Shown here: piece after piece, positions 3,205 through 62,336 of the stretch
How the letters are laid out: each line of letters opens with the position of its first letter
Numbering within the stretch: position 1 is the stretch's first letter
Notes under the pieces: generated by a model
What the model was told of the DNA's origin: nothing
The model's input: the letters and a program-made list of their open reading frames with translations, nothing else
Databases searched by the model: none
Assembly (NCBI GenBank): GCA_003971905.1
Contig: RSEE01000014.1
Location: forward strand, 558,001 to 622,000
Direction: 5' to 3'
Origin: Moniliella sp. 'wahieum'
Lineage: Eukaryota
Length of the DNA stretch: 64,000 nucleotides
Translations under genes and position numbers: made by a program

Positions 3205-3709
3205 GGCGATGAGGTGAGCAGAGCAGGTGGAGCAACGCCAACGCCATCGCGGCTGCTGGTCAGAAGAAGCCAATTTTTCAAATGGCGGAACTGAATCTGC
3301 GGAATGTGCTGACACGTGGCCCGGGTCTCCTCGCCGCGAATCAGTACTCAGTACCTTGACGCTTGCCACGTGACACGTGGCACAGCTGAAAGCCAACATG
3401 CCTGCCCAGGCGCCCTGGCGCCGGTCTCAGGTGCGGTCACCGGTCACTCAGCTTGGCTGCCTGGACAGTGTCGTCCGCCTGCATCACCGGATGGTTTGGT
3501 CGGTGAGATTGGGGGATGTTCGATTGGGCAGCCGGTAGATCCGGGCGGCAGCTGCGCTGTTTGCCATGTACGTTGTACTGCCTGCCGTGTACCTGCAGCG
3601 CGCGTGTGGCGCCCCCAGTGACTAGTGGTTAATGATCTGCATCCGCGCGCCCCCCACCCGCAGCCGCCCCTCTTTCCCACCACCTTCTCCCCACCCCTGC
3701 CACCACACC

Positions 3710-5899: not shown

Positions 5900-7371
5900 A
5901 TCAGGCTACCATTGTCAATCTCAACTCCTGGAAGCGGTTCTACTGCATCCCCATATGATGTATTCCCCCTCTTCCCCTATCGGACTTCGTATCCCAGTTG
6001 GTGGCCCTACCACCCCCTCCCCCGCCGCAAGACGGATGGGCTGCCAAGCCTGATTCTTGCTCTTCCCAAAACGACCGGATACGCCTATGGATTGGCATGG
6101 TCTCCAAATCCTTCCAGAGTGTAAAAATAGACGAGCTTAGAAAATGGGGACAATGGTCTCCTCTACAGGATAGAAGGCAACTGAAAAGTTGGGACTCCTG
6201 AGGGTAGCGGTCCTGGTCAATTCGTGGGTCATGATAGGTGGTCACGCCCCAATAGCCATGAGGCGAACGCTCTGTGGCCCTCGAGTGATAGCATTCGCAA
6301 AAGGCGTATTCGCTGCTTTGGGCAATGTAGCGCACCCCCCGTAACTACGAGATCAGTGTACGAGTCGCCGCGCTTGGTATCCCGACCTCTCTAAAAGAAA
6401 GTGTACTTCTTCAAAAGGATTGTGTATTCGGTTGCTCCCAGGAAGCCAATCTTCATCTCTGGTCTAAAAGTTCCAGGTATGTGACACATAAAATCGACTC
6501 CTCTCCTCCAGTTCCATGAAGTATCCTCCCAGGATTGGGGCATGAGGGGCTTGGGCGAGCTTATAAAAAGATGATAATCTCGGAACTATAGCCACAATTG
6601 GACAAAAACACGACTTCGAGACTCAGCTATATTGCTCCCTGGTGTGCATTGTCTTCGGCGGCGAGAAGCGGGGGCGGCCGTGGCAAGGTAGACGCAAAAT
6701 GCTGATGTTTCCGTCGTCGCTAGTCACTCTCGGTCTTTTGTGGCCTACGGCCTGGAAGTTGAGGGGGGCTGTATGGTGGACTGCATATGAATTTGTTGAC
6801 GAGAACTTGTTGCACCTCTCCCTGAGGGACACCCTTCCGCATATTCACGAATTCAAACTCTCTCAGCGTTTGGGGCGCGCAACTAGAACCGAGGGTTCCC
6901 TTCACCGTCTCATGATGTTCAACGCTCAACGTCCTCAACACTCAACGTACTCCATCCCCACCAGCCTGAGACTCAAGCTCTTTTGCTCGGGCACTGACTA
7001 CATTCTCGTAAGAGCGCTGATGTAGAGAAAACTGTGCACCAAAGACCGTAATGAGATATCCCACATGTGATGATACATTGGTTTAGTGAGAGCCGGCTGG
7101 CGCTGACAGCTCAAGGCTCAAGATGGAGCGTTCAGGTGGGGGGGGGGGGGGGCATTCAAAGCGATAAAAGGGAAAAAAAAACGCTTCGCCGGATGCCATA
7201 CAACGAAGGCTGAAGATGCCGGATCCTTCGATGTGATCTGAGAATGAGATCTGACAGTATAAAGGAAGTACTGTGTGTAGGTGGATGAGTGTGTGTACAA
7301 CGAATATGATCCAGCAACAATCAGATAAGACGCGCCAGCCCACAGAAGGGAAAAAGATGTCATGGTCCCCC

Positions 7372-9171: not shown

Positions 9172-11945
9172 GGGATCGGTGAGTAGGGAGTGCGCTGACT
9201 ATGGGTGGCTTATTATAGAGCGCTTAGCGCTACACTTTGCTGGCTCTCGTTTGTGCACCTCGTCGACGCCAATCATCGACATCAATCATCGCATGCATCG
9301 ACTGCCATGGGCTGCCATGGGCTGCCCAAGTTGCGCAAGCGGGCCAGTGGTAGCCCCCGTCACGCGTCGCAGTGACATGCATGATGTATGACGCGTGACA
9401 AGGACGAACCAGACACATGCGTGGCTAATGCACGCACAAATAGTCCCACAGGACAATGTGACATGCCTGTCACCAGTACACGTGATGAATGTATGCATGA
9501 TGCATGAGATCGAGAGCACCATTGAGGTGTATGTGTCGCTGCAATCTCTTTGCCTTATCGATTGTCCTCCGGGAACGGTAACGCGGTATCCGGAACACCA
9601 TAATGCGCAACGTGCGCGAGCGTCTGTCACCGCACCGCTCTCACCGGCTCACCTAAGCTGACGTCCCACCAGTTATATACAGCACCACTTCAATCGCCAA
9701 TTACTTACTGTTTGTTCTCCCCCTCTTCCCCCCTCTTTAGGCACACCTCTCTGATCTAATGTTGAACGTTGACAGGAATCATGCAAAAGCACATATATAC
9801 CGCCAACAGTAGCAATATAAAAAGGTTGAAATATGACACGGCATTCTCTCCGTCAAAAAGCCAAGGGAGGACGAGATGAGGAAAAAACGCGTTGAAGAGG
9901 GACTCCACAGGTGTACGGATTGCCGTGGGTGAAAAAGAGTACAGGGGTGTTTAACGGATCAGGAATGGAGGTGGACGGACACCTTGAGAGGCTTGTTTTG
10001 GGAATCATGGAGGCCAGGATTGATATGGTCCAAAAATATGACACTAACAGGGGTGCGTCTCCGCATTGTGTCCACACTGCGCTCTTCACATAACCGTGCC
10101 TCCTTCCTCTCCCTGAGGAACATATACCTCTAGTGCGTCCTCATGGCCAATCCATCTATCTCTCCCTTTCCTTCAATATAGGCTTATTTCCTGACACAAT
10201 TCATGTCTAACTGAACGCTAACGTCCAATACGAAAACGGAGCTCAAAGAGATGAACAGGCAAGGTCCACTTCATTTGTGGCTTCTCAGCTCGCGTGGGAA
10301 GGGTGGGCACGAACCCTGAATGAGGAAATACTATAGGGTGCCTGTGCTCAGTAGAAGCTGGAAGTTCGGGTGAGGGAGAGGGGCGTACAATACAAGCAAC
10401 GGCAGGGCCTGCCAAGCCCCCCTGTTACTGAAGCAGCTCCACTATTGTCTCGTACAGGGCCGCGGCAGGGTTTGCAAGGAGGAAACTGAGTACTGTACTT
10501 GAGCGGCACCAGATGTCAGATCGAGAATTGATAATTGAACGCCTGGCCGACCTAACGAGCTACCCACTGCAAGAAGCGGGTCTGCAAAAATTGCTGGTAG
10601 GCTCGAAGAAACGCGTGGGCTTCTCACGTCAAAAGACCATGACAATATGACCCGCTATTCCACATAAAGAGAGCATGCTTATAAGAACAACTTACAGATA
10701 GAATCATTAAAAGGAGTTTAGCATATATAAAAAAGGAAATGGCAGCACAATTGTTGAGAAAGACAGAGTAAGGGAACGAGACCCGTGATTATCGAGGCAC
10801 AAGTGCTCGGAAAGATACGTGAGCTTGATGGGGAACGTCAGTCCTTAGTTTGCAACACACCACATCATGAACCCGCCCCCGTCATGGAAGAGTCTATCAA
10901 GAAAGTGTAGTCTGGTCATCACTCTATAGTACCGATGTGTACTGTGTGACATCTGCTATTAATCAAATCCTCGGGCACCACTGTTGATTATACGCCTTAG
11001 GCCTCGCCGAGGCCTCATCGCTATACCCGAGCAAATCAAAAGATCTCTGATTGCTTCAGGTTGCGGAAAATGTATAGCCATTTACCACACCTGTGTGTTG
11101 TCCATATCAAAATGCTTATACACAGCAAAAACACAACAGTAAACTCCAGGTTTTCCTCAGGGTATCATTGAGTCTATAACAAGCCCCTTTTCTTTCGTCC
11201 ATAGAGAGGCTCATAGTGCGCTTTCTAGTTTTATCAGAGGGAGAGACAATCATTGTTAGAGAAAGGTTACTTTTAATAACCCGCGACACAGACGCATCAT
11301 TCGTACAACAGAGGAAAAAGCTCTAATGTATTGGGAATCAACGTTCAACACGCGCCCTCCACGACTTTTCACCTATTCTTTTGGCCAGAGCGTAAGAGCA
11401 ACTCCTACGCTGTAACCACTACCCTGTCGCATCGGGGTAGAAGCGGTTGCAGAACCTACAGTCCAACTTTTTCTTCTCCTCGGAGCAAATCCACCCTCCA
11501 GCCGCGGATGTGATCACATATGGCCCGGAAACTATTGCGAGCACTTCTTCCAAAAACACCGTAGTTTTAAATGAAACCCATGTGGCTGTATTAGTAGGTG
11601 ACGGTGACTCGTCACCGTGATGCGTGACAACATCTCACGATCGCATCGATCTCATTAGTGAGATGGCAGCGTGACGCATTGGCCCTGGATTTGTGTGACC
11701 TTCCGGTTGTACGCCGCGGATCGGTCAGCCGTGCATGCTGGCCGCGCTCAAGGTGGGCGGGACGCAGGTACCTGCCAGGGTCTGTCATTTCTCGACCACC
11801 ATCGTATCGCACGGCAACCAAGCCTTCACTCAGGTATTTGGGCTATACTAACCTTGCACCGACCAACACATTTGCCAACGGTGTGAGGCCTGACGGTCAA
11901 AGGTTCCTTCACCCTGCCTTTTTTCTTCTCTGGCATCTACTCGAA

Positions 11946-12988: not shown

Positions 12989-13546
12989 CGGGGATGAGGG
13001 CTAGCTGCCACAGGTGGGTGTCTCCCTGTGCGTGTCGAAGTGGATAAGGGCTGCTTGCTACAGGGCTTCTGCGCCCACTGAGTGCATTTTGTGCATTGTC
13101 CATGCGGGCTCACTTGTTGCTCCAGACGGGAGGCGAATCTGGATGGATGGATGGCAGACCGTCTAGACCCACCACAGGCACAGAGGAGGGTAGACCCACC
13201 ACAGGGAGGGTAGGTGCATCTGTCAGAAAGCGTGAGAATCTGCAAGTCTGAAACGATGAAAGCGGAGCGTTGAAAGTTGAAAGCGAAGAGGGAGCGTCGA
13301 TCAATTGATTCGATGCGACGGCTGCTTCCAGGGGGCAGGTACCCGGTGAAAGTTGCAAGGTGAGCCTGACATGTGACAAGCCAGGACAGGCGGGCGAGGC
13401 GGCGCGCGCGACGTGGGGACACTGGCCCTCTGCTGGCCCCCCGGCAGAAGACCGCGCGCGGGGCGACACAGGCGCCGTGCCGCACCCGCCCGACGTGGAG
13501 CAGACAGCCGCGGCGGGGGCAGTGTGCCACGTCTGCATGCACCCGG

Positions 13547-13588
13547 GCCCAGCCCAGCCCAGCCCAGCCCAGCCCAGCCCAGCCCAGC
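13547..13588 (+). repeat. (GCCCA)8 pentanucleotide microsatellite upstream of the septin start
   Basis: Read directly. Confidence 0.95.
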
Positions 13589-16785: not shown

Positions 16786-16866
16786 GCTGGGCACTGCAAC
16801 AAGGCTGAGCCAGAGAGTGGTGGGGGGCTGCGAGCGACGCAGCGAGGCAATGGCCGTGCACACCGC

Positions 16867-16906
16867 CTGCCCTGCCCTGCCCTGCCCTGCCTTGCCTTGC
16901 CTTGCC
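16867..16906. repeat. (CCCTG)/(CCTTG) pentamer run upstream of the ARP3 start
   Basis: ctgccctgccctgccctgccctgccttgccttgccttgccc read directly. Confidence 0.9.
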
Positions 16907-18481
16907 CAGCCAGCCGGCGCAGGCACCACGCCGCGCTTCCGTCCCAGCCGCTGCTTACATCAGCACCCAGCCGCCACAGATGCGTGCGAATCTTAATCAG
17001 CACAGCGCGTCCGGGGTAAACCTTCCAGCTGCAACATTGCGATAACGCTTCTCACTATCATCGTCATCAGGCCTCAGACCCGGACCAGTACCTGCTGGGA
17101 GACTTGGGCCCAACGATAAAGATGGGAGAAGGAAAGTAGGGCGCCCTCTCCCCTTTAGTTTGCTTGCCAGCCCCAACCATGCGCCAGCAAAATACGCCTA
17201 CTACAGTAAAACGTCACTTCTATTTACACTCTCCCGTCGGCATCTCCCTAATAGATAAAGTTGTCTCTCCGCGCGCTTCCATGGTCTGTATTGCCTTTTA
17301 TCCTCAGACTATGGCATCTGCTATTGCATGACGACCAAATCCTGGCGGACATTTTGCTTGCTCCACTGGAACGTGTCGACGTTGGCATCGGCACTATCCC
17401 AAAAAAGTTATCTTTACGCTACATAAATCCCGCAGAGAGTATCACACACCAAAATTGCTGGTAATCTTGGCTTTTGGCTGTGTGGCTGGGAAGATGGTGG
17501 TACTGATGATATACGACGTCTGGATCTCTCTACGACTGAATTCGTGGCTCTACCATTCTTTGTGCCATCTTTCGTTTGTACAATCTCGAGTCGATTTTCG
17601 GTTTTTTGTTCACATATAATGGCGGTGGATATAGAAAAAGGTCACATCATCAACTGATGGATAGCCACATCTATTCCACCCCATGTGCCCGTGAACCCCC
17701 ATGATTTCGCATCAATCACTGTACCGTCCGGTCCTCACGAGCTTCATCACGGTGCTTCCCACACTTGGCCTCCGTTGTCATTTTTTACGACGTGGTGGAA
17801 TGCAAAGGGAATGATTTCTCTTTCGCCATGCATCATGTCATGGCATCTTATAAATGGTGTGTGGTTATAGAGGTTATCATGTCATCGGGGAAGACGGGTT
17901 CATTTGCAGTTTATGGACTTTCGGCAGCCCTTCTTGGTTTTGAGCTCCCTTTGGCATGTCCCCAAGGAATAATGAGCTTGAGTATACGCTGTGAGAGACG
18001 TCTGGAGGATGTGGCGGTGGAGCTCTATACTTACTAGTGGAGCAGGGGTGGTACGTGACGCGCGTGACGTCTGAGAGAAAGCCGAGAGGGGGTGGAGACT
18101 GTGCGAGTGTGGGGGTTCCTTCATGTCCTCGAGATTGACGATCCAAGGCCAGCAACTACTAAACGCTCGCACAGTAACGTTTAACTAGGCTACCACTAAT
18201 GCGGTGGACACAGTGCTCCTGCTCCTCTTGTTTGTGGCTCTTTGCGGTGGTGTGGGGTCCACCAGGCTCGGTGGTGGCGCGGTTCTAGGGTTGGTGATGA
18301 CGTCAGGAGCGGAATTCAAATTGCGCCGTGGGAGACTGACGCTGTGCGCGCATGTAGAAAAAATATCGTGGGCTAATAACTCAGTTCAAACTTCCGCAGC
18401 GGCTTCGAGCGGCTTCGACTTCGCGATCATCTTGCGTTGGAGTCGACTGCGGCTTGACCTTTCCACCACCACCAACACACC

Positions 18482-31884: not shown

Positions 31885-33575
31885 TCAGGTTAGCTTGAAC
31901 AGCTTAGGCGCCCCCTGGTCGTGCAAAGCCAGTTCAGAAAAGGCATCAGCCATCACGTCGTCTTTCGTTTGAGAGAAATAGTGCTCCATGATAGAGAACG
32001 CCGCCTGAGAAATGTCGTGATTCTCATGGCTTTGCAGACGTTGAATAGTTGCCGCCCCTCCAGCCTCTTCGACCTGAAGCGCATAAATGTTGACGGCCCC
32101 GGCCCCGGCATTTTCTTGTCCAATTCGCCAACACGGAGAATACTGTCGATTCCTCCAAGCGTATAAATGTTGGGCTCGACCTTCAACATATCGCATATGG
32201 GCTTGATGCAACCTTGGTGCACAAGGTAACGAGTCTGGGCCTTGCTCCATCACGTTCGCCGCGGCGTTGGTCAAGACGTAGCAAGCCTGCTTGAAGATGT
32301 CGGGATGGGCCGATTTGAGAAGTTTGATCAATGGCGGGATGATGCCAGCGTCGATGACTGCTTGAGCTTGATGGGAGGGGCCAGCGGCGATGTTCGAGAT
32401 GGTCCAGCAGGCATCTTTTATGATTCCATCCTTCGGCGAGGATAGGAGGGCAAGGAGAGGGGTAAGCGCCCCGGATGCCACAACCCTGGGTCTGCACGTT
32501 TGAACCCACGGTAAGGTTGCCGACCGAGTATAGAGCAGAACGCTGGACTGCTTCCGAATCGACGGCCAGCAATTCAACCAAACGAGGAACAATTCCCGAC
32601 TCGATCACAGCTTGGGTGCCGAGTGAGGGATGTGAGCCGGCAGACAGGTAGGCGACTGCCCAGCAGGTATCAATTAGAATCTCCTCATCGGTTGAGTGAA
32701 TGAGCTTGGCTAGCACGGGCAAAGCCGGAGCGACCAGCTCCCAGGCAGGGGGAGGTCCGTTGCCACCACAAACGTTGTGCAGCGTCCAAGCAACGTTTCT
32801 CAGCAAACTTATCTTTTGGTTCTCGTTGAAAAGGGAAAGAAGTGGAACCATGGCACCTTCGTTGAGGAACAAGTCGCGGCGTGCAATGCTCCCACCAGCG
32901 ATATTACCTAGGGCCCAAACTGCTTCTTCCTGTATGTCGATGTTGGGTGACCTGAGCAGCTTGATAAAGGCTGGAACGGCGCCAGCCATGGCGACCGCTT
33001 CGATGTTGTACTGTGATTCCCCCGAGGCAATACTGGTCAAGAACCATGCTGCCTCGAACTGAATTGCCTCACTGTTGCTTGCTAGGCACTGAACAAAGCG
33101 AGGAGGAGGTCCGCATAAATCACATCCTCAATAAAAATCTCCGGGCTATCCCCCTTATTGTATAGAAGGTTACGAAACTGCGTCGTAGCTTCCAGCTGGT
33201 CCCGCTCGCTTTCCGACATGAGTTTGGCCACCAACTGGGGCGGGAAATCCTGATGTTGCGCAGAGCACTGTCAGCACGGTGAATTCGGCTAGAGGCACAA
33301 CATAGCTCGACCAGTGGCAAAACACGCACCAATTCGTCTTCAGAGTGATATCCACTGGACACATCTTCGTCATTGGACACGTTATCCGTTTCTTCATTTG
33401 TACGTGTAGTGTTGGGGGCGGGAAACAGCTGGCGGTACAAGTGGTTGCTTGCGAGGCGTTTCTGGTGGCGGATTCGAGCCTGCTGGTCTTCGCGGCAGTG
33501 GATATCATCTCCCTGAAGGATGCAATCGCTCTTGTACGACTCCAGTCGTCCGGTGTTGTGCTCAGGTTGGAACAT
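31885..33575 (-). CDS. Divergent importin-alpha (karyopherin alpha) paralog; intron about 33250-33329; several indels
   Basis: ARM repeats FEAAWFLTSIASG, EEAVWALGNIAG, RNVAWTLHNVC, IDTCWAVAYLS and KDACWTISNIAAG; C-terminal IQRLQSHENHDI...IMEHYF; degenerate IBB. Confidence 0.88.
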
Positions 33576-34870
33576 GGGCTACAGGGGGTAGGGGTTAAGG
33601 ACGGGAAAGTGGGAGGGGAAAGGGAGAGGCGGTGGGCGTGAGGTGGTGGTGGTGGTGGCAGAGTGAGGCCGGGCTTGAATGGGCTCCGACCGTGGGGCTA
33701 TATAGGCCACAGCAGGCGTACACACTCAAGTGGAGCGGTACCTATGTAGTAGACTAGACTGACCCTGGCATGGCCACGTTGGCTTGCAGCTTCATGCATC
33801 ACATAGCACTCAGCTATTGGTGCCACACGTCTATATATTGGCACTCCCCTGGTTCCCCGACAGGGTCCCCCCTGGGCACGGAAATCCGGCGCAATCATTA
33901 GTTCATCTCTATCGATCATCGATCATCTGTCTGCCTCTGCTTGTGGGGTTGCGCTTACTAGCACCGGGATCATCGATCGACCTAACCGGATGGAGCAAAT
34001 GCGTGGTCGTTGATCGATGATTGTTGTTCCGCGATCAGCACTTCGTTACTCCGTCTTCGGAGTACTGTGGGAGGCGGGCAAGGCAGGGCAGGAAGTGGTG
34101 GGATGCAATGGTCTTTGAATTTACAACCCTGCCCACAGAACTGCCAGCGTGGTGTTTTGTATAGGGAGCGGCGAACCACCAATAGCCGGTACCCCGTAAA
34201 TACATATGGTCCGTCATTCAACCCAAGTCCCCACATGTCTTCTGTCTTGACACTCAACCTCGTATGGAGGGGCGGCGCAGTTGGCAGCAATCGCCGATGG
34301 GAGAGGTAGTGAACCGCTTCTTGCACATGTTCCTATCAGTTGTTTTGCAAATACTATGAATCCACAGTGCAATGAAGTAATACAACTAACTGCAGTGCAG
34401 ATCACTTAGCCAACCGTTTGTTGTTCATAAAGCTTCCGAAACTGCTAGCAAGACCTATCCCTTTTCCCAGGTGATAGCCGCCGCTTCAGCAAAGGAAATA
34501 CGCGGAGACGTTAATGCCACTATGCATGCCTGCATCAATATGCGTCAACAACCCGCACGGAAGTACTGCCAAGAGAAGCCGGAAACCAACACATCAGCTG
34601 GATGGGAAGTAGGCAGCGTTTTTTTCCCTTCTGGATCAACCAATGACGGAGGGGGATTGTTTGGATGCCGATGGTATTCATTCAGGCTGCAGGGAATGGT
34701 GTCTTGTATACCATAGGGAAAAGAAAAGCAATCCCACCGTCAATCAACGCATGAGAGGGAGACACACACAAAGGGGTCGCGGAAGATCTAGAACAGGGTC
34801 ATACGCACAGTCGGTGGGTATGTGTGTGACCCGTCAACCAAGCTGGCTGCATGATAGTTGTGCCCCATAC

Positions 34871-36651: not shown

Positions 36652-38043
36652 CTAGTAGCCGCCGTAGTAGCCGCCTTGCTGGGGTCCTTGTCCCCCATGG
36701 TGGGCACCGGACGCACCGCCATAACCTGCCCCGCCATACCCTCCCTGGGTCTGGTTGTTATGAAACCCTGGGTAGGGCGCCTGTCCAGAAAAATCAGAGC
36801 CACCCCCGCCGTGACTGACCTCGGGGAAGGCCATGTGGCTGCCGTAGCCGCTGTCGGGGTACTGGGCACCGGGGTGGTTACCAGCTGCTTGGTGTTGAGT
36901 AGAAGGCCCCTGGAAAAGCAAATGTTAGATCACGTTGCTTTTGTAATGGAGAGTATGACGTACATTCGAGGAACACAAACGCATAGCATACTCGCCCGCC
37001 TTCTGCACAGCTTCATCCTTTGTTCCTTGAGCCTGACCACTTTGGGACTTTTGCTCCCATAGGTCAGAGGCATGAGACATGGCAGCTGCAACACTAAAGG
37101 GACCACAGTTAGCCATCCTTTCGACTTCCAACAAAGATCAATAGGACATACAGGTTGTTCTTGGCGCCTGCGTCAGGGTGGCCTTGATTGCTACCCAGGA
37201 CCGTTTGCATAGCGTGAACCGCTGACGCACCGGCAATGTCATGAGCCCCGACAGTACTAGAAGGATCAATGCTACGTTGGTGCGCTTGTTGCAACGTCGC
37301 AGCATCCGGAGGAGGGGTGGAGGATAAGTCGGCCTCCCGCGATAGGAGGGATGAGGCGACCGAGGAAAACATACTGGAGTTACCGCCCGAGCCTCCCGAG
37401 CCACCTTTAAATGTCGAGGCAAGCTTGATGAGTGTCTTGACATCCAATCCTCCGCCTCCACCTCCACCCGATCCATTCTTGCCGGTAAATGCGGAAGCCA
37501 GGCCCATCAGTTTGGATACATCGAACCCAGAACTAGACGAAGCACCCGATGCACCGCCATGGGAACCACCACCGGCAGCTCCCATGGCGGCGCCTAGCAA
37601 GGAGCCAAAGCCCCCTCCACCTCCGCCAGATTGGCCTTGCGGTGCTCCCGAGTGGCCACCGCTTTGGCCCATAGAGGAAGCTGCAGCCCCCAGTAACGAT
37701 CCCAAACCACCGGCGCCGCTGCTCCCCCGCCTTGTTGAGTACCGTGGTTTCCGCCGGCCCCTCCGGCAGCGCCGAGGAGGGAGCCCAGGTTAAATCCACC
37801 GCCGCCACCGCTCTGGCCGCCGGCTTGGGGGTTTCCGTGTCCAGAGTTGGCCCCGGCCATCGCGGACGAGGCCATGTTGAAAAGGGCACCCATGTCCATC
37901 CCACCGCCATTGCCGGCCGGACGGGCCGATTGTTGCTCGTTGTGGCTACCTTGCTGGCCCTGCGGGCCCATGAATGATGAGGCGAGGCCCATGAGGGCGC
38001 TGGGGTCGAATGCGCGCTGGTTCTGATCGTGAGGGTTTGCCAT
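36652..38043 (-). CDS. Gly-rich protein resembling the basidiomycete beta-flanking protein family; two introns near the 3' end
   Basis: Repeated GSLLGAA / xDxxxLMGLASxF units; NSSMFSSVASSL...QQAHQ...GASAVHAMQ...AAAMSHASDLWEQ...KDEAVQKAGEYAM core; G/Y/Q-rich tail. Confidence 0.65.
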
Positions 38044-38227
38044 GCTGGGTGAGGTGCAAGTCAGGGGGGGGGGTGCTGGTAGGTGGGGGGGCGAGGAGAG
38101 GGCGAGGCGTGGGTGGATGGAAAACGCCTCGGAGGTGTGGAAGGGGTGTGTGATGGGCTGCTGCGGAGCGGCTGTGAGGTAGTGGTAGTGGGTACGCGCC
38201 CAGTGTGCACAGGCCGAGTACCCAGGG

Positions 38228-38262
38228 ACTAGTGACTAGTGAGATCTGAGATCTGACATGTG
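38228..38262. promoter_or_regulatory. Array of five 6-bp palindromes at 7-bp period (ACTAGT-G-ACTAGT-G-AGATCT-G-AGATCT-G-ACATGT-G)
   Basis: Read directly; about 185 bp upstream of the Gly-rich gene start. The regulatory role is inferred. Confidence 0.55.
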
Positions 38263-39790
38263 CCAAGTCGATGGTCGATGATCTCATCGATGATTGCGGG
38301 CCCCTGGCTGCCACTGTTGAAATTAACCTAATTAATTGGCTCCGCTCTGGAGTAGTCGAAGTGGTGCCCGATCCCGACGTTGAAAGTTGAACTTCAACGT
38401 TGACGCGCTGAACGCCCTAACTCCGTTGAACGTTCCTGGATCGTCACCGTCGTCTTGGACGAACGCGCCCACACCTGCCCGCACCTGCCCACACCCAACT
38501 GCCGCAAGTATGCCACAAGTCTGGCGACGAAGCTGATGGAGACGACATGCGCATATGCGTCCGCAGCATCACCATCTTCCTGTCCCGAACGTAATGGTAT
38601 GATGGTAATCGTAAAGAGCAAGAAGCAACAGCTACCGATGCCCAGTGCCCTCCACCATAATCCCTCCTTTTTGACCCGCTCAACCAAAATCACGTCCTTG
38701 GGGGGGGGTGAATGTAGTGCACCGTATCGAGAAATGCCCACAGCCACTTGGGGGGGGGAAGAAACCCTGGCCAGGGGAGGGCACGGCTAGCCGCAAGCCA
38801 CGACTGCCCCCACCTGAACTCATAACTGCAGAAGATCCAAGAACAGACAGTTGATGGTGCATTGATCGCACATGAGCTACAGAAGAGGCTCAAGATTTTC
38901 CTGCCATCTAGGGAGGAATGCTGGAAGGAATGCACTGGAAGGACCCGGGCTTAGGCTAGTAACCGCGCCACAGTAACCCACGGAAGCCTCCTGGAGTCAT
39001 AACCCAGAAGGGAGAATGAAGGAGAGGAGAGGGTGAGGTTTTGAGGAAGGGTGCAGGCGGGTATGGAACGGATAAGGCCTTATCTATGTATCCGAGGGAA
39101 CCACGGAGCCAAGGGAGCGCCCGGGCGAATGAAAGAGAGAGATGAGGAGTGAGCCTGTCACGAAGGAATATAGCGTGTTGATTAACGAATGATTGGGGTA
39201 TCGCCCAACAGAGATTGTAGTTGGGGGAATCCCACGCTCATGTGTCCGTCTTTTGTGCATCATGTGTTGTGAGATCGAGTCGGGGGCAATCTACACGCAT
39301 CTTCCGAGCGGACGCATCGAATTCGTCCATTCATCGGCCATGGAGCGCAGACTGAGCTTTTAGCGAGAGGTGGTATATGGAACCCCGCTCGAACACCAAA
39401 AGCTGTTCTTCTGACTTTGGGCTATCTTCTCTTGTGGGGCCGATTAACGATTCAAAACGTACACAAACGCCTTCCCGTCATTAATTGAAGAGGCGCAAAA
39501 AGTGACGTTAGTAAGCGGCTGAGCGCTTAGTCTAAGCGCTTAGTTATTGCTGTTTAGCGCTCTGTATAGCGCTGTGGATTGGCGATGCCGTCATCGCGTC
39601 AGCGCTGAGGCTCAGCGCTCATTCAGCCGGCGAAGTGGCGGATCTGATAAGATGGCACGATCAGATCCACTGCCCCCGTACCCCGTTTTTTTGTTTCGCT
39701 GTTCCAGCGCCTGCTCCATGCAGGCGCCGGACACGGCTAGCCTGCTACACCCCAGCCGGAGGATTCCCATATTCAGCCTGAATTCAGCCT

Positions 39791-39928: not shown

Positions 39929-42246
39929 ATGTCTTCGCACGGCGTAGGCGCGCGCGTTTCATTCCGCCCCGTACTCGCCCCATGCCCCGCCATTCCAGCA
40001 GCGCGTCCTCTTCAGCCCCGTCGACTCGCCCCGTGTCCCCTCGGCTATCCTTCCATCCCGGCCTGGCCGCGTGCTAGCACCCACGCTTCCACCCCGCACG
40101 CCCATGACCACCACATCCGCAATGTAGTTGTTTGTGGCGGGAGCTAGGGGGCATGCACTGTGCTTCCAGTCTGGCTGAGCACCTCCCTCCGGGCTATCGC
40201 GTCATTCTCATCGAGCGCAACAGCCATTTTAATCGTATGTCCGCCTTACCCCCCCCCACCCACCCACCCCCGTTTGACGCCCACTTCTGTACTGAATGCT
40301 GACGTCGCTATGTACAGACCTTTACTGCTTTCCTCGATTTAGTGTCCTACCTGGACATGAACATGAAGCATACATTCCTTACTCATCCATCTACGACAGC
40401 GAAATTCCACCAGAGGAACCTGCTCCTGCGGAAGAGGCATGCTCCCAACAGTCGAGTGAGATTGCCCCCAATCATTCCCAGTCGTACACCAAGCCGAGTG
40501 CCGATGTGACCATTCCCGCAGCCGCCCCAGGGGATGGGTCTTCTTCCGGTGGTGCAGCCACTTTTGATGTGCCGCCCTCTTCGAATGGCATGGGAAACAC
40601 GACTACCACTTCGTACTCATGTTCGGAAGGATCATCGGGTGGAAAGGGGCCCAGTGACGCCGGAAGTACCCCGTCGGGCCTCTCCACGGTCCAGACTAGT
40701 GTCGTGGATGATGACCAGGAAGGTGTATCCCACAAGGAGACTGCATATGATCACCTCCCGACCATGGAGGATGCCGTGGGAGAAGGCGACATGGAGCATC
40801 TCATCGAACTTGATGTCGAACATCTTCGCCTTGCGGCTCCCTTTCAGGTGGCCCACCTGGACGACATTAGCCAGCACCACGGAGCACGCCTAGAGGAGGA
40901 CCTGACGGCCGAGTATGACGAGGGCGAAGATGACGCTGCAGGCGACGAGGAAGACACTGACGCCACACCCCTGCTCACCCGCATTTGGTACTTCAAGCTT
41001 CGGTCACTGAAATTACTCCTACTCATGTCTTGGTCTCCCCTCATGGGGATCAAACGGGCAACGAAGCGGTCCTGAACCAGCTGGGGGAGTCAACTTCCTC
41101 TAGGGGTCTGTGGTCGATCGATCAAGTCTCGATTCCTTACGATTATCTCGTTTATGCGCTTGGCAGCAAGATGCCTGCCCCATTGCGTTCCTCGGTTAAC
41201 ACCAAGGCAGGGGGTATAAGCTGGATGAAGCAGATGCAGAAGCGCATTGTAGATGCCACAAAATGTCATTGTCGGTGGCGGGGCTCTCGGTGTGCAATAT
41301 GCTTTGGACATTGCTACTGTTCATCCAGAGAAGGCTTCTAGCGTGACGCTACTTCACAGTCGCCAACAGTTGTTGCCCAACTTTCACCCCTCGGTCCATG
41401 ACAAGGTTTGCTATCTTCAGGAAGTTGGGGTCAACGTCATTCTTGGGGAGCGTCTGGCACTGGCAGGGGGGTGTCCCATGGGAAGCACGGTGAGCAAGGC
41501 CACGGGCCTGAGAGCCGACAAGATCGACGCTACGTTGCCTCCCACAGAGCAGCCCGTGGACGAGATCAAGCACATTCGCACCACTGCAGGAAGGGAGCTG
41601 CAAGCAGATCTACTTTTGCTCTGCACGGGGCAACAACCTAACAGTGGCCTCTTGGCCTCCTTCTCTCCTTCAAGTGTCGACCCAGCCTCGAGATTGGTGA
41701 AGGTCAGCCGGACACTGCAAGTGCAAGCATCGGACCCAGTAGGCGTTGCAGCGCCTGGACCGTTCGAATTCACCCCTCCTTGTGGTGACTGCGACTGCTT
41801 TGTTGAAAGAAAGACAGGCGGTGAGCATCCTCATCTTGAGCCGAGGTCTCCTCAACATGCGCAGATGGAAGCTGAAAAGGTCCTTTCCCGAGTTTACGCC
41901 ATTGGCGATGTGGCGGATGCGTTTGGAGCGATCAATGCTGGCTACCAAGCCTGGAGTATGGCTGAAGTAGCCGCGCGCAACATTGTTCGCCAAATTCGTG
42001 CGCAAGAAGATGGAAAGCCCCCCAAAGGCCAACAAGCCCAATTGGCGGTGGAGGAGGCACTGGAACACTTTAACCCTCAACCGCCGATGCTTAAGCTTAG
42101 TTTGGGCTTGGGGTCCATGGTTTTCCAAGGCTTGCCAGGTGAGAACGGTGAGCCCAACGTCGAGGTCCGTGACGATCCGGAAGACCTGCAGGTCAAGTCG
42201 GTGGCGTTTTATGGCCAAGTCGAGCACACAAGACATGCACCGCTGA
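39929..42246 (+). CDS. AIF/AMID (FSP1)-like FAD-dependent pyridine nucleotide-disulfide oxidoreductase with a long acidic/Ser-rich insert; intron about 40236-40318; several indels
   Basis: NVVVCGGS(Y)GG...RVILIERNSHFNH, FPRFSVLPGHEH, PYDYLVYALGS, VIVGGGALGVQYA, LLCTGQQPNS and VYAIGDVAD. Confidence 0.9.
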
Positions 42247-43327
42247 TTAGAAGGAGACACATGCTTCCTTCCCATCATTTCCTACGATTCATTAGGGATA
42301 CCCCACATGCACTTTGGGTGTCTGTTGTCCTCAACACACCGATCCTTTCATGCCGCCCATTGATTTACCCTCTGTTCATCCATTCATCATCCCGTACTTC
42401 GAGGTCATCTCGATCATTGTTCATCGAACTCTCCGTTACCTTTTCAAGCATACTGTTTTCATGCACGTGTGGTTCAATGTGTCTACTGTCCTCTCCCGGT
42501 CCTCACACTGTAAGGATCAGGTGATCAGAGTGGCGCACGCTCATACCGCTCTCCGAGATGCCTTTCCCCTCTTCTCTGCCCTTTCCTTCCCCGACGCTTC
42601 GCAGTTGCCGGTGACATCTGGCGGAGTGTTAGCCGTCGTTTTGCACCAGCTCGTCGTAGCAACTCGTAGTATCCCCATTCCATCATTGGCATCTGTTCCA
42701 TTCCACATCATTTGCGTGGGACGAGATGTATAGATCGCTATAGCAGTATCGAGTGTGTTGGAAGGGGCATTATGGTGATCGAAGTGACGAGGCAGGGGGC
42801 GAGAGACAACAACAAACGAGACCGGGCGGCACGCGGGTGGTGCGTTGGACGAAGCGGTGTGGTTGCAAGCGCCTCTCGCCGCGCTCAGCCTGACACAGTT
42901 GGTCGGAAGCAGGGCTACCAATCCAGAACCGCTCGCCTCACCTGATCGGCTACGGTATATGGGCGGCGGCCGAAGTCCGACTTGTGTGGTGACTAGTGAC
43001 TATCACAGGCCTCAGTGACTAACTGGCTGGCGCGGGAGACGTGGCGAGCCGGCAAGCGTGGCGCCAATGCAGCGCACGGGGCCAGTGTGGAACCGGCGGG
43101 CGGCGGGGCAGGAGCGGGGCTGTGTAGGGTTTTTCCCGAGCGGCTGCAGCAGCGCGGGTGGCCGGTCAGGTGACCGTCACTGGTGGCCGCAGACGGCCGC
43201 CCCCCCCGTGATCGATGACATCAGCAGCCCAAGACCTAACCCACCCACGCTGCCACCCACAGCGCCGCCCCCGCCGCGCCCGCCCAGCTCCCAGCTCCCC
43301 GCTCCCAGCCCCGGCGCCCTCCCCGCC

Positions 43328-47681: not shown

Positions 47682-50600
47682 GGCCTCTCGTCCTGGTCTC
47701 CTTCCCTCTTGACTTTTTCTTACCCACTTTGCACTTGGTCCCCCACCCATCCTCTCCTCCCCACCTAGCGTACGTTTTGTCCCACCTTGCCCCGTCCATC
47801 CGTTTTGTCTGCCCCAGTCGGGGAGGAGAGAGGATGGGCTTTGTTACGGTTTCAAGGCACTCCCCACTGGCTCGCTAGGATTCACAGCCTGGCCAATCTC
47901 CGATCGCACATCCTCAATCCAAGGACGTTGGTTGTATGGTTGTCCTCATCCGTAGCGGGTTCAGTCTCGACCGAGCCTGGACCGCCGGCTTTCGCCGCCG
48001 CCTCCTCTCTTCAGAGATCCTGTAGCCCCAAAGATGGCAGTACGCGCTGCCCCCTCTTTTGACAGCGGCAGGCGCCCATACGCCCTCACTCGTCTTAGGC
48101 CCTCATTCGCATGCGACAGCGGTCGGCTGGATTCCCAGCGCGTTCAAGCTTCACCCATTTCGAAATCAGAGCAGGGCTGGCTGGGCGGGTGCCTGTGGCC
48201 CACCGAGCGCGAGAGAAAGCTGGTGGCCTGGTCTTGTCATCCAAGCGGAGTGGGGGGTTCACCTCTTTGGAGATGCAACACCGCAGGATGCACCTGGTCC
48301 CACAGAGCGCGCACAACAGGCTTGGCCATATCCTGCGGATCAGATGGGCAATCGTTTGCCTCGATTCAGGAACTTGAGTCGCAATGGCCAAACCGAGAAC
48401 TCGAGGGAAGCGATTGCCCTAGTAGCCAGGCATATAGGAGCTTCATTTTGTTGGAAGCAGTTGAACGAAGACGGCTCTTGGTACAAGGCTACAGATGCTT
48501 CTTGGTGCCATGTCAGGAAGGGGGGGGGGTTGCGCAGAGCTGCTGCGACTGCCACCGCGCGTATGTGCACGTTTGGAGGGTGAAGCGGGTTCCATGTTCC
48601 TGCCTACTATACTACACTTGGCGAATGCGATACACTTCGGTGAGTTGGTGGACGGGTGTAAGACCAGACGAACCGGCAAGAGTTGGGTGATGAACCTCTG
48701 TGGTAATCCAAGCAATGCAATCGATGGTGGTGGTTAAGGTCTAAGCTCTAAGCCTTATGCCACACCTAGAGGAGACAGGGGTTCAAACAAGCCTGAGCAT
48801 ACACGGGGAGGCTTCGGAGGTCAAATAAGAGGCAACGGGTGATACTCGAAAAAGTGCTTTGGCTATGTACGGGACTGCGAGTCCCCACAACGGGGGAGAC
48901 AAGCTCGTTGCAGTCATAGTATCATTTACAGATGAGCGTAACAGTGGGACGCAGGGAGGTCTGTGCTTAAACCGTCCCCTCTGGCATCTGGCGTGTGCGT
49001 ATGTTGGCGCCAACCCGTTTAGGAAACCAAGGGAGCCGCCAGCAAGTCAGAGGACGCTATGACGCCCGCCATTTGTTTCCAACCCCGGGGTGGCGCGCTT
49101 GGATACGAATGAGCGTGGCAGGCGTCCAAGCAGTGAAGTAGCATATCTCGTCCATGATGGTACTCTCATCAGTTAATTCTTTGCAATGCATTGTAACCTC
49201 GCGTCGTCATAACCAGGGGGAAGGATGTTGGTTCGTGAGCGCGGCCCTTGGCACTTGAGGTTCTTGTCGCATTCCGCGTTTGATTCATCAATCGAACAAG
49301 CAGATCCTTCTCCCGACGTTCCGAAGGCGTTGCGGCAGTGCTCTCGTTAGCAGCGCTACTCCACCCTCCGATACGCAAACATCGCCTCCCGTAGTGCCAC
49401 CGAGCCCCACACCGTTCAAGTGGGGCCGGTCAAGCTTCAAGCTTCAAGCTCCACTGGCGCAGTACAGTTTTCGCAGCCCACGGAAAGGAGGCCTGCTAAG
49501 GCCGATATGGAGCAAGCAAAACCTACGCCTCTCAAACCAAGACCCCGCCTCTACAGCTCATTAAGCTCATTGACGGCCAAGTCGATCACCGGGTTGACCC
49601 CCGATGCCCCTGTGAGGTGACGCATAAAAGCGTAACGCGTAGAGAATGCAGGCATCAGTATGTGTGGATGTAGATGGTGAGTGACTAGTGACTAGTGAGC
49701 TCTGCGCAATGGCCGACACGTATTGCGCGATATCACTCCCCAGGACGTTGGTACCATATAGCGGGGACAAGATGCAGCAGGAGGGAATAGGGGAAATCGC
49801 CGACAATCGAGATGCTCGTCTGGGATCGCTGGTGTGTGCCCAGCGCCCATCGCCGATGGGTTGGCACCCAAAACGCGCGCTTTTCTCCCCACGGTCTCAT
49901 TCCCATCAACCATCGAAACCATCGCGCCAGCGCGTCAGCGCTCAGCGTCATCGATCACCGATCACCGGTTTTCCGTCCCCACAGCGTTCCCAACCCCCGC
50001 CGGCAGATCACCGACATGATGATCAAACGTCCTGCCTCCTGAGCCATGTGCGGGCCAATGCGCGTGGGGACGTGGTGGGCGCGCGGGGAGGATGGGACGG
50101 GGAACGGTGGAAGGGCAGGATCGTGGATGTCGGATGGGGCGGGTGCGGCGCGGGTGGCAGGCGAGGCCCCCGCAGCCAGCGTATTTCCGCACATGGAGAT
50201 GGTGTGGGGCATGCCAGCCGCACATGGCAGCGCAAAAGGCGCCGCAGCGCTCGCGTGCGTTCTAAGGGCGGCGGGTGACCGGTGAAGGTCTGCGGGGGTA
50301 AGCGGCAACCGGCAACGGGTAACCGGTGAGGCTCACACCTCTGCTTGGGGCCAAGGGGTGGAGGAGGGCAGGGGTTCTGCGTGGAGGATCTGCGCGGGGG
50401 CTGATGCATGGGGTGTGCATGTGATTCATGGGATGCGATGTGATGCATGGATGCATGGATGCTGGGCTGGGCTGCGGGTGGGCCGCATTGGATATTGGCC
50501 AGGCCAGTGGTTGGTGTGGCTGGCCATTAACCAGTGGGCATGCAAGCCAGTGCGAGCGACGCGTGCGCCTGGCTCTTGCTGGTGTTGGCAGCGTGCTTCG

Positions 50601-52298: not shown

Positions 52299-54360
52299 GC
52301 AGAGCCGGGAACGTGCGCTGATGGGTATGGGGCCGCACCACCATGCCAAGCTGAACCGCAAGGCGCATGCCCAGCGGGTGCCTCATGGCCCGGTTCGGGT
52401 TGTTGGAGCAACCGCCACCGCCGTTGCCTGGCGGCCCCGCGGCTCAGGCCACGCCTGCACGCGGCCCTACCGCCCCTGTTTCTTACATGCAATAACCCCT
52501 GTTTTGTCTCCTTCTTTTTCATCCTCCTCCTCAGTATGGTTATACTCGCCTCGGTTTCTTTTCTGGTCCCTCTCCCACACGTTCGACGGCTTTGTGGCGA
52601 TGGTCTACGCGCGTCAGCGTGTACGCCTGACCACTTGGAGTGGTCACAGTATGGACTGTTTTTGTCATGGGCTTGCTTGGGGCTATTAGTATGCAGCGGT
52701 AGTGGTACATAGCCATTTTTGTGATATCTGCTTCGAACGTCGAGGACGAGGTAGCAGAGAAAGAGGCATTGCGCGGCGCACACGAAAAGGGGTGGCTTGG
52801 ATTCCATCACCATCATGGAGGCTCACCTGCCCAGCAGGACAGCACAATCACGGACAGTCTCGCTGACACTGTCGTGCTACGTCGCATTGTGGGTTAGTAC
52901 GTTAGTACGCTTGGGCCTCTCTGGTCCCTCGGGCATGGTAGGGGTAGGCGAGGACTCAGTGCTGCGCCAGAAGGTGGACGACTTGGGACTGCTCAACGTT
53001 ATGGCGGCGGTCTATGAGAAAAATTGATGAAGATCCAGCGTTTTGCTATCGGCGGCTTGCTTGTCTCTGTTTCCTGAACCAATCTTGGCCTTGAAGCTTG
53101 AAGCTTGAAGCGTGTGAAAGAAAGGTCTTTTGACCATGCCTATCTCCCCACACTATATCCCTCGGTTCCTCTTTTCCTGGTTCCTTAGTACTTACTGCAG
53201 ACCACAACCGACCACCAACAGGGAGACTGGTGTGCCCGCGCGTTCACAGATATCATGTTTTTACATGCACATGCTGTACCTCTACGTGAGTGTGTGAAGG
53301 CGTGAAGAGCGTGAGCCGACGGGGGCTGCGGCGCTGAGGACGTCGAGTGCAAAGTACAAGACCCCTGCTTACCCGGTGCAGGAGCTACGCTACAGCGGTC
53401 AGCGCTGAGCCGGGCAGGCAGACACCATATGGATTGGCCAGGACCACGTGTGTTCCAACCTGTGCAAGCTGCCCCAGTGCTCGCAGCTGGTTCAGCGTTG
53501 AGTTCAAGTTCAACGCAGCTTGAAGCTTGAATGTTCAACTTGACGCTTGACGCGACGCTTGAGTCTACGTGGACGCGTGGACGCGTGATGGAGCCACGGT
53601 GCAACAGCAGGCAACAGCATGTGGATGCCCCCCCCCAGCACCCGTTTCGCCACGCCGCCCATGCGCCGCCCCCGAGGTCCCGACGCGAGCGGCACATGCC
53701 TTCTGCGGGCATCACGCGTCCCTGCACCCCTCCGCCCGTTCTCTATGCGGGCCCGAACCAGCGTCGCGAGTACTCCGGCTGCGTACGCGGTTTAATCACT
53801 GTTGAATTCAACCCCGTGCTTTCTCGCCGCCGGGCAAAAGGGCGAGGGTGGATGGGTATGTGTGGCGAGGCGTCGTGCGAACAAGGGGGCTCGCAACTGG
53901 AATGGGGGTGGCAGGCTACGTGCATGGCCTAGGGCGTTGAGTACGTGGAGTACGTTGGAAGGCGGCAGCTATAATCGATGCATGCGATCGATGGTAATTC
54001 TCCGTGTGGGGGAGACGGGCGGCAGGAGACGACTGGTCCGAGTGGCAGTGGCGAGCGAGGACGGAGGGTGGGGGGATGGAGGAGGCATGGCAGTCGATGG
54101 CATGTCGATGGGCTCGGGCCCAGAAGCGACGAGCGCATCGCCGCCTGAAAAGGGAAAATTTGATTGGCGACAGCACGTGGTCCTCCCGGGCCTTGCCGCC
54201 GCTGCCCCCACCAGGCCACACCCGACCACACCACATGCTCTGCTGCGCACCCCGTGCACCCCACCCGGTGCTGGCCACGCTGGGCCTGCCCCAGCATGGC
54301 CGCCGCCGCTGCCCTTACACTTGCCCACGGCCACAGCCCTCCTCCCCACCACCACCCGCC

Positions 54361-61624: not shown

Positions 61625-62336
61625 CGTCTCGTGGCGGGGGAGAGGAGGCAGGGGGAGGGGGGGAAGGGAGGGGAGGGGGCAGTGGTGGTGGCAGTGGTTG
61701 CGCAGGTTGTGCTGGTTGGCTGTCGTCGGCCTGGGGCCGCGCGCCACACAACCAACTGAGCGGGCGGGATGAGGATTTTCAAAACGGCAGTGTGTACCAG
61801 CAGCTCCAACTAACTAGTTTATTCAAGAGCCAGCCGGAGAGGCGACGCGCCTCGTTCGCCAACCGAAGCCAGACCGCAGCGCTGCGTTTGGCACCACGGC
61901 GTCTGTTTGCCGGCAGGCATTCTACATGTGCGCCATGGCGGGGCATGCGCAGCAGGTGGAGGAGGGAGAGCCTGCGGTGGCCGGCGGCGGGCTGGGCACT
62001 GGGTTGGGTTGGGCTGGGCTGGGTGGGGGTGTAGGGCCATCGGTGTGTCGGTGCATGCCAGCCAGTGCGCGCCTTACCTAATCCCCCCCGCGGCGACACA
62101 GGGCACGTCACGTGTCCTGGCCAGCAGCACAGCAAATCCGTCGGCCTGTCCGCTCCGCTGCCGCGCCCACGCCCTTGCGTTTCTCACCACTGCCGCCGCC
62201 TCTGCATCGCCTCGCACCGCCTCTGCACCGCCTCCATCCGCGCCTCCACCCGCGCCCCGCCGCCCCCTCCATCACCGCCACCACCACCACAGCCACCCCC
62301 TCCCCCAGCGATCCCTACGCATGCCCGTCGGATAGC

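Follow-up and report, generated by a model that had tools for sequence, protein, structure and literature searches.

Enzymes of the hAT, Transib, RAG and MULE groups make hairpins on flanking DNA (PMC5499845), and such structures are cut by Pso2 and Artemis 2 nt 3' of the hairpin apex (PMC3299998), with P nucleotides ranging from 1 to 4 nt in length (PMC2175297). The P-nucleotide joints described for RAG/Transib and for the MULE Muta1 display a zero-spacer, even palindrome templated by the DNA end, mostly of 2 nt and with the partner end trimmed (PMC5499845, PMC3299998, PMC2175297), and are in these respects like the sequences analysed here. MULE duplications span 8-10 bp and Muta1 excision is mostly precise (PMC5499845), whereas the unit found here is 7 bp long and centred on TNA. 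Footprints of the hAT element Ac/Ds likewise combine a target duplication, short P insertions and microhomology, but in these the palindrome has an odd centre, namely the complement of the base adjoining the element (PMC5873905), whereas the centre observed here is even. Similarity in length is found in hAT7 of rust fungi, which makes 7-bp duplications (PMC12730594), and hAT families with duplications of this size have been noted in Repbase (PMC4455052). PHIS elements (NuwaII at C|TNA|G; PIF/Harbinger at TWA) share the TNA target, but their reported duplication is 3 bp, and at most 5 bp (PMC4482050), as opposed to the 7-bp unit without any C/G flank rule described below. Lastly, the products of short-range template switching can also be written as a direct repeat plus a short inverted copy; that process, however, has no sequence target, no fixed geometry and a low frequency (PMC7954356), in contrast with the strict TNA and 2-nt inversion reported here.

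Relative to RAG, Transib and MULE joints, the outcome in the genome studied here is far more stereotyped, occurs genome-wide and is iterated into arrays. A description of this signature was not found in the literature searched, in which subscription papers were mostly beyond reach. The hairpin chemistry is known; what sets the present case apart is its unusual target, the near-fixed outcome, the genome-wide scale and the iteration into arrays.

The locus lies in a window of 64,000 nucleotides (the whole stretch of DNA analysed) from Moniliella sp. 'wahieum', on contig C14 of a 69.5-Mb assembly of 223 contigs. A second copy of the window, on contig C19 (stretches L001-L008), is about 95% identical, indicating that the assembly holds two haplotypes. 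These are about 3% apart in substitutions and differ by very many gene-breaking 1-2 bp indels, which are probably long-read errors. Among named proteins, the OLA1 of the window is closest to those of Tilletiaria (84%) and Tilletia (83%), in keeping with a basidiomycete related to the smuts (Ustilaginomycotina).

A sequence-only reading of the window had singled out the string A-CTAG-TGA-CTAG-TGA-GATC-TGA-GATC-TGA-CATG-TG at 38228-38262, which direct reading finds there letter for letter; the remaining strings that it quoted are likewise all at the coordinates it gave. Its description of the array as five 6-bp palindromes in phase is accurate up to the fifth palindrome, which is followed by TG-C and not by TGA. 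We assessed the underlying pattern against 100 dinucleotide shuffles of 1-kb blocks of the window. T[CG]A-N4-T[CG]A sites number 101 (shuffle mean 66.9, max 85), and the predicted excess of palindromic cores is evident at 42 of these 101 sites (shuffle mean 3.8, max 10). When all 3-mer/N4/3-mer contexts are compared, only TCA..TCA (equivalent to TGA..TGA) stands out, with 36 of 69 sites palindromic (p about 1e-26), and there is no general excess of palindromes (1006 6-mers against 989 expected). The palindromic signal belongs to the direct orientation (TGA..TGA 20/36, TCA..TCA 16/33, compared with 6/18 for TCA..TGA and 0/14 for TGA..TCA). The raw lag-7 count of direct TGA/TCA is 69, about double the mean of 31.8 for lags not divisible by 3 but not appreciably above that at lag 9 (65), so that core symmetry, and not autocorrelation, constitutes the strong signal. 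The target is also wider than TGA and TCA. All four TNA triplets are used, with 14.2 events per 1000 sites for both TCA and TGA, 8.1 for both TTA and TAA and at most 1.7 for other triplets, and CNA is a weak minor target (43/342).

The motifs follow a simple rule, TNAxy -> TNAxy-y'x'-TNAxy, which operates on either side of TNA and by which the core is set by its flanks: the 7-base gain consists of five adjacent bases copied forwards and two copied backwards. In 324 kb of one haplotype, the two-base spacer of D-NN-D is the inverted one at 331 of 451 sites when D is TNAxy and at 189 of 3306 for other 5-mers, and 12 stretches from 12 other contigs give the corresponding values of 181/235 and 125/1963. 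The outer flank repeats half the core at 258 of the 302 direct palindromic sites in 324 kb. We regard the motifs, with very high confidence, as flank-templated mutational scars. The same length of sequence holds 303 strict arrays, or about one scar per kb, 13 of which have two cores and none three; the outer ends of the two-core arrays match the predicted flank at 18 of 26. Since TNA has two independent flanks, leftward and rightward events can give different cores in phase. The TCACGAT-type heptamers of Ustilago maydis that the sequence-only reading had placed in the same TCA-N4 scheme, and for which a literature search gave nothing relevant, fall outside the rule, which TCA-CGAT does not obey.

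Comparison of the two haplotypes over 300.7 kb of alignment revealed 8390 substitutions and 4180 indels, 3227 of them clean (at least nine of ten matching bases on each side). Clean indels of length 5, 6, 7, 8 and 9 number 35, 48, 72, 28 and 29, respectively. Among the 72 of 7 bp, 44 obey the rule (D, the reverse complement of its last two bases, and D again), with D = TNAxy in 40 of them, and 28 break it; the 40 at TNA are longer in one haplotype in 23 cases and in the other in 17, and are unpolarised. Where junction homology is exactly 5 bp, 19 of 23 indels of this length conform (chance about 1 in 8). The same joint is seen with one more duplicated base in 8-bp indels (8/28 at TNA) and with two more in 9-bp indels (7/29 at TNA). 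In a held-out pair of contigs, C17 and C62 (59.9 kb aligned), eight of 16 7-bp indels obey the rule, five of them at TNA, and eight break it, and 6-bp indels (18) exceed those of 7 bp (16). Ordinary slippage does not account for the main set, since junction homology is limited to 5-6 bp in 33 of its 44 rule indels; the remaining 11 sit in perfect tandem runs, where slippage would suffice. A templated hairpin or staggered-cut mutational footprint, one of two explanations put forward in the sequence-only reading, is thus upheld by the insertions seen in haplotype indels and by the flanking dinucleotide, which predicts the core. A 14-bp haplotype indel at L028:8321, in which a 9-bp duplication is combined with an inverted copy of 5 bp, resembles the rule in longer form but lacks TNA.

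The spacer containing the focal array is probably a divergent promoter; the start codon of the left neighbour is likely at 38043, which puts the array about 180 bp upstream of this gene. The features of this spacer and its flanking genes are as follows.

37112..38043, minus strand: left neighbour gene, Gly-rich, with a weak DUF7721 match slightly below cut-off.
38224..38262, no strand: focal array, AG GGA CT AG TGA CT AG TGA GA TC TGA GA TC TGA CA TG TG.
38224..38242, plus strand: left block of the focal array, attributed to leftward events on AG-TGA giving core CTAG, with an outermost copy AG-GGA (one presumed substitution).
38240..38258, plus strand: right block of the focal array, attributed to rightward events on TGA-GA giving core GATC, with a last copy TGA-CA (one presumed substitution).
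38254..38262, plus strand: TGA-CATG-TG, where C19 has TGA CA TG TGA CA CGTG.
38284..38293, no strand: TCA-TCGA-TGA, the inverted (minor) form.
38379..38392, plus strand: GT TGA AA GT TGA AC, a TNA-centred 7-bp duplication one substitution off the rule.
38394..38403, no strand: TCA-ACGT-TGA, with 6 bp missing at this site in C19.
39599..39621, no strand: TCA-GCGC-TGA, then GC TCA GC GC TCA (a leftward unit).
39929..42521, plus strand: right neighbour gene, with a pyridine nucleotide-disulphide oxidoreductase domain at 41253-42521; the start at 39929 is a guess.

The focal array begins four bases further left than had been read, at 38224. We infer that it combines leftward CTAG units on AG-TGA with rightward GATC units on TGA-GA, assuming two point changes. 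In C19 the array is longer by 14 bp, or two extra 7-bp units: the left block has one additional CTAG unit, and the counterpart of 38254..38262 is a full rightward unit on TGA-CA. The difference at 38254..38262 may stem either from a unit acquired by C19 or from one deleted in the window. The focal array itself has no stable fold (z 0.04). Dispersed repeat remnants occur at 38825-38960 (about 36 copies at 72-84% identity) and at 40135-40414 (two copies at about 70% identity).

Further instances are spread across the window.

3341..3352, plus strand: TCA GT AC TCA GT, a rightward unit.
3435..3446, plus strand: GG TCA CC GG TCA, a leftward unit.
7109..7122, plus strand: GCTCAAG twice, a plain TNA-centred 7-bp duplication, with one copy only in C19.
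9389..9398, plus strand: TGA-CGCG-TGA, with an imperfect flank match, at a 42-bp haplotype indel.
9496..9507, plus strand: CA TGA TG CA TGA, a leftward unit.
13269..13282, plus strand: GTTGAAA twice, a plain TNA-centred 7-bp duplication without palindrome.
49430..49448, plus strand: array TCA AG CT TCA AG CT TCA AG, with one unit fewer in C19.
49680..49698, plus strand: array AG TGA CT AG TGA CT AG TGA.
53092..53110, plus strand: array TGA AG CT TGA AG CT TGA AG.

The two occurrences of TGA-AAGT-TGA (13271 and 38381) that had been grouped with these motifs lack a palindromic core: 13269-13282 is a plain duplication, and 38379-38392 lies a single substitution from either a plain duplication or the rule form. 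Elsewhere in the window, pentamer repeats (GCCCA, CCTGC, TGGGT) are found upstream of or near genes at 13547-13588, 16866-16911 and 62000-62028, and an importin-alpha-like gene with Arm repeats (31885-33580) looks divergent and is perhaps a second paralogue.

The geometry of the scar is narrowly defined. Inverted-spacer hits for duplicated lengths of 5, 6, 7 and 8 amount to 331/451, 39/82, 42/96 and 3/12, so that the joint is flanked by a duplication of fixed maximal length, and the sharp stop at 7 points to a symmetric unit, abTNAxy. The Transib target duplication, by comparison, is 5 bp. Plain exact two-copy 7-bp duplications outside rule units agree with an abTNAxy unit, with TNA central in 13 of 20 (p 1.5e-5) and the control triplets GNC, CNG and ANT flat as centres. 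The inverted part (P length) is 2 nt, with zero spacer and an even centre, and stays at 2 even with 6- or 7-bp duplications, while joints with P bases on both sides hardly occur at all (two sites, both within arrays). As expected of hairpin footprints, the insertion reverse-complements the end that it adjoins, without a spacer, and P is mostly 2; a hAT footprint, with its palindrome centred on one unpaired base, is not supported, as odd-centred palindromes account for 18/126 and even-centred ones for 332/453. No flank preference was found beyond TNA, whereas many transposases show one, and an apparent preference for CG-TNA-CG disappeared once arrays were removed.

A covalent hairpin, once opened, leaves as its signature an even palindrome of two bases with zero spacer, and two hairpinned ends each carrying the whole 7-mer would follow from insertion with a 7-bp duplication and subsequent excision. 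We favour, with moderate confidence, the view that the scars were left by the excision of a cut-and-paste transposon whose target duplication is 7 bp long and TNA-centred, the flanks being hairpinned and opened 2 nt from the tip. The element would insert at the T-N-A centre with a 7-nt stagger, duplicating abTNAxy. On excision each flank would be sealed as a fully paired hairpin in the manner of RAG, Transib and MULE, as the zero-spacer even palindrome suggests, and a Pso2/Artemis-type nuclease would open the hairpins about 2 nt from the tip, a known chemistry for which the genome encodes a putative Pso2/SNM1-type protein (a DRMBL match over cut-off, with an HFHSDH motif nearby). End joining would then usually keep two P bases on one side and trim two bases from the other, possibly with the T.A of TNA serving as a microhomology of 1 bp, to give abTNAxy-y'x'-TNAxy or its mirror image, the product observed. 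Retention of one overhang and removal of the other would yield the commonest product, +7; less trimming would yield +8 and +9, and joining without P bases the plain 7-bp duplication, all of them products found in the data. Hits on both sides of one TNA would set two cores in phase, and re-hits, slippage and point mutation would lengthen and vary arrays, both in part observed.

Terminal-repeat and duplication scans, together with domain and protein searches, covered about 1.0 Mb of the 69.5 Mb and did not reveal any element whose duplication is 7 bp and centred on TNA; such a duplication is likewise missing from all the large haplotype insertions listed. Domain searches of the genome for Harbinger (PF13359), hAT (PF05699, PF04937), MULE and KDZ gave no match, three of these searches, both hAT ones included, having no positive control. 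The transposon-related loci encountered were the following.

L145:6854 to L146:1747 (C34), no strand given: candidate EnSpm element of 4.9 kb, with CAC..GTG ends, short terminal repeats and a 3-bp CGC duplication.
L141/L161 (C17:556181-557982) and L160 (C62), no strand given: Tnp2-like gene, at the same locus in both haplotypes and 93% identical.
L006:8739-8953, L049:5093-5281, L035:4684-6233 and L055:4372-9624, no strand given: LTR-type insertions in one haplotype, three with 5-bp duplications.

EnSpm/CACTA elements of the CMCT clade are related to Transib and RAG1, and their Tnp2 (PF02992) genes are present here, but the duplications reported for the clade are of 2-5 bp (PMC12730594) and that of the one delimited copy is 3 bp, against a scar unit of 7 bp. 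These Tnp2 (EnSpm-type) transposase genes occur at two loci, neither of which fits as the source of the scars, given the 3-bp duplication on C34 and the lack of visible ends on C17 and C62. The C17/C62 gene, for which we found no terminal repeats or duplication and whose best outside relative is 29% identical, appears from its sequence to be old or domesticated. LTR integrase was rejected: the LTR-type insertions have 5-bp duplications (CTTGA, TAGCA, TTGAA), which cannot yield 6- or 7-bp units. The L055 insertion is recent, its two 211-bp terminal repeats being 99.5% identical. PHIS elements do not fit either, because a 3-bp duplication cannot place xy after the first TNA and the cores follow the flank; leftover element ends as cores are ruled out by the same dependence. 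Worked through on paper, the geometries of Spo11, Top2, Top1 and tyrosine recombinases give no duplication with an even palindrome. Two other repeats were encountered: a family with one conserved end and variable length, with about ten copies in 0.8 Mb (L037:1148-4962, L033:3555-3963, L025:3319-4287, L002:2609-2898), the ORFs of whose 3.8-kb copy have no Pfam match, and a 1.37-kb element (L154:4212-5585) that has an 8-bp GGCATGCC duplication and whose long terminal repeats are nearly perfect.

That about 1.0 Mb shows no element although scars occur about once per kb is what would be expected if the same scar arose without a travelling element, from a host or domesticated nuclease (for instance, a RAG-like EnSpm-derived enzyme) or a repair pathway that makes a 7-nt stagger round TNA and hairpin ends. 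Two further observations point the same way: the two haplotypes share, at one locus, a Tnp2 gene whose ends cannot be recognised, and the motifs are clustered (75 gaps under 50 bp against 20 expected, with a maximum of 32 in 200 draws). By our estimate, however, a few dozen mobile copies would be enough over the haplotype divergence, and most would be missed in a 1.4% sample, so that failing to find them is not decisive; moreover, we know of no chemistry in which a 7-bp duplication is filled in and fully paired hairpins are formed unless an insertion has come first. We consider an element-free origin fairly unlikely. A bolder version, in which a domesticated RAG-like EnSpm-family enzyme or host nuclease would cut accessible TNA in the germ line and write 7-bp insertions into promoters, leaving no element behind, appears distinctly unlikely; promoters would then be subject to a mutator that is either programmed or tolerated, and tandem repeats could arise by a new route. 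Also improbable is an origin by slippage after short-range template switching at the replication fork (in the four-point model, point 4 lying before point 1). Such switching does create direct and inverted repeats (PMC7954356), T..A offers a 1-bp microhomology for re-entry and slippage evidently acts in perfect arrays, but the first switch would occur without priming homology and with zero spacer, the other self-complementary triplets (GNC, CNG, ANT) show nothing, P is fixed at 2 with 6- and 7-bp duplications, and plain 7-bp duplications are centred on TNA.

The other explanation of the sequence-only reading, in which an oligomerising promoter or origin factor recognises TGA half-sites and the arrays are kept by selection for its binding, draws on the distribution of the motifs. 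None of the 39 in the window falls inside genes (about 35 kb, 1278 TNA sites), although gene limits for this tally were hand-drawn after motif positions had been seen; tandem spacers show a moderate bias, with 16 motifs in the start-side half and seven in the stop-side half; and convergent spacers hold two motifs per 194 TNA, against 36 per 969 elsewhere. A binding site, however, needs no outer flank repeating half the core, and all four TNA are used. Divergence between haplotypes speaks against it as well: substitutions affect 37 of 716 core positions (5.2%) and 19 of 1074 TNA positions (1.8%), relative to a non-coding background of 3.2%, and 107 of 286 sites carry a haplotype indel. The cores therefore diverge faster than background instead of being conserved above it, which argues against binding sites, and we deem a composite site of this kind very unlikely. 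Distribution and divergence fit neutral scars that selection against frameshifts excludes from genes, some of these scars perhaps being in secondary use. An artefact of sequencing or assembly is hardly credible. The assembly is rich in errors, with 1-2 bp indels making up 2589 of the 3227 clean indels and many genes frameshifted, and the contigs of one metagenome run (14% of words) do not span the focal array. Errors would not, however, spare the hand-drawn genes, nor leave only seven of 302 motifs in the coding-like 23.6% of bases (as masked by a simple codon model, trained on 11.8 kb, that under-calls genes); 179 of 286 sites align without gaps between two separately assembled haplotypes, and decayed copies exist.

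As to range, the comparison with other fungi covered 80 metagenome loci around Arp3. Five clusters of gene-dense loci at 81-82% identity have two testable sites, neither of which obeys the rule. Five intron-bearing loci of other fungi (L112, L104 and L102 among them) have 4 of 17 TNAxy-NN-TNAxy sites that conform, and pooled short loci 2 of 13; in all three sets the numbers are too small for a verdict.

Within this genome, substitutions outnumber rule-conforming indels by about 135 to one (8390, as opposed to 62 such indels of 5-9 bp at TNA). If the proposed origin is true, the scars of a single mobile element are on the order of tens of thousands in each haplotype (as extrapolated from 303 arrays in 324 kb) with hardly any copy visible, and the element would be a leading source of multi-base change in promoter-side DNA. 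Its scars would be called binding sites by motif finders. They would also point to a transposase whose target, 7 bp long and centred on TNA, is unusual, show on a large natural scale how hairpin ends are joined in a basidiomycete, give short tandem repeats a rule-based origin and form a readable record of past transposition.
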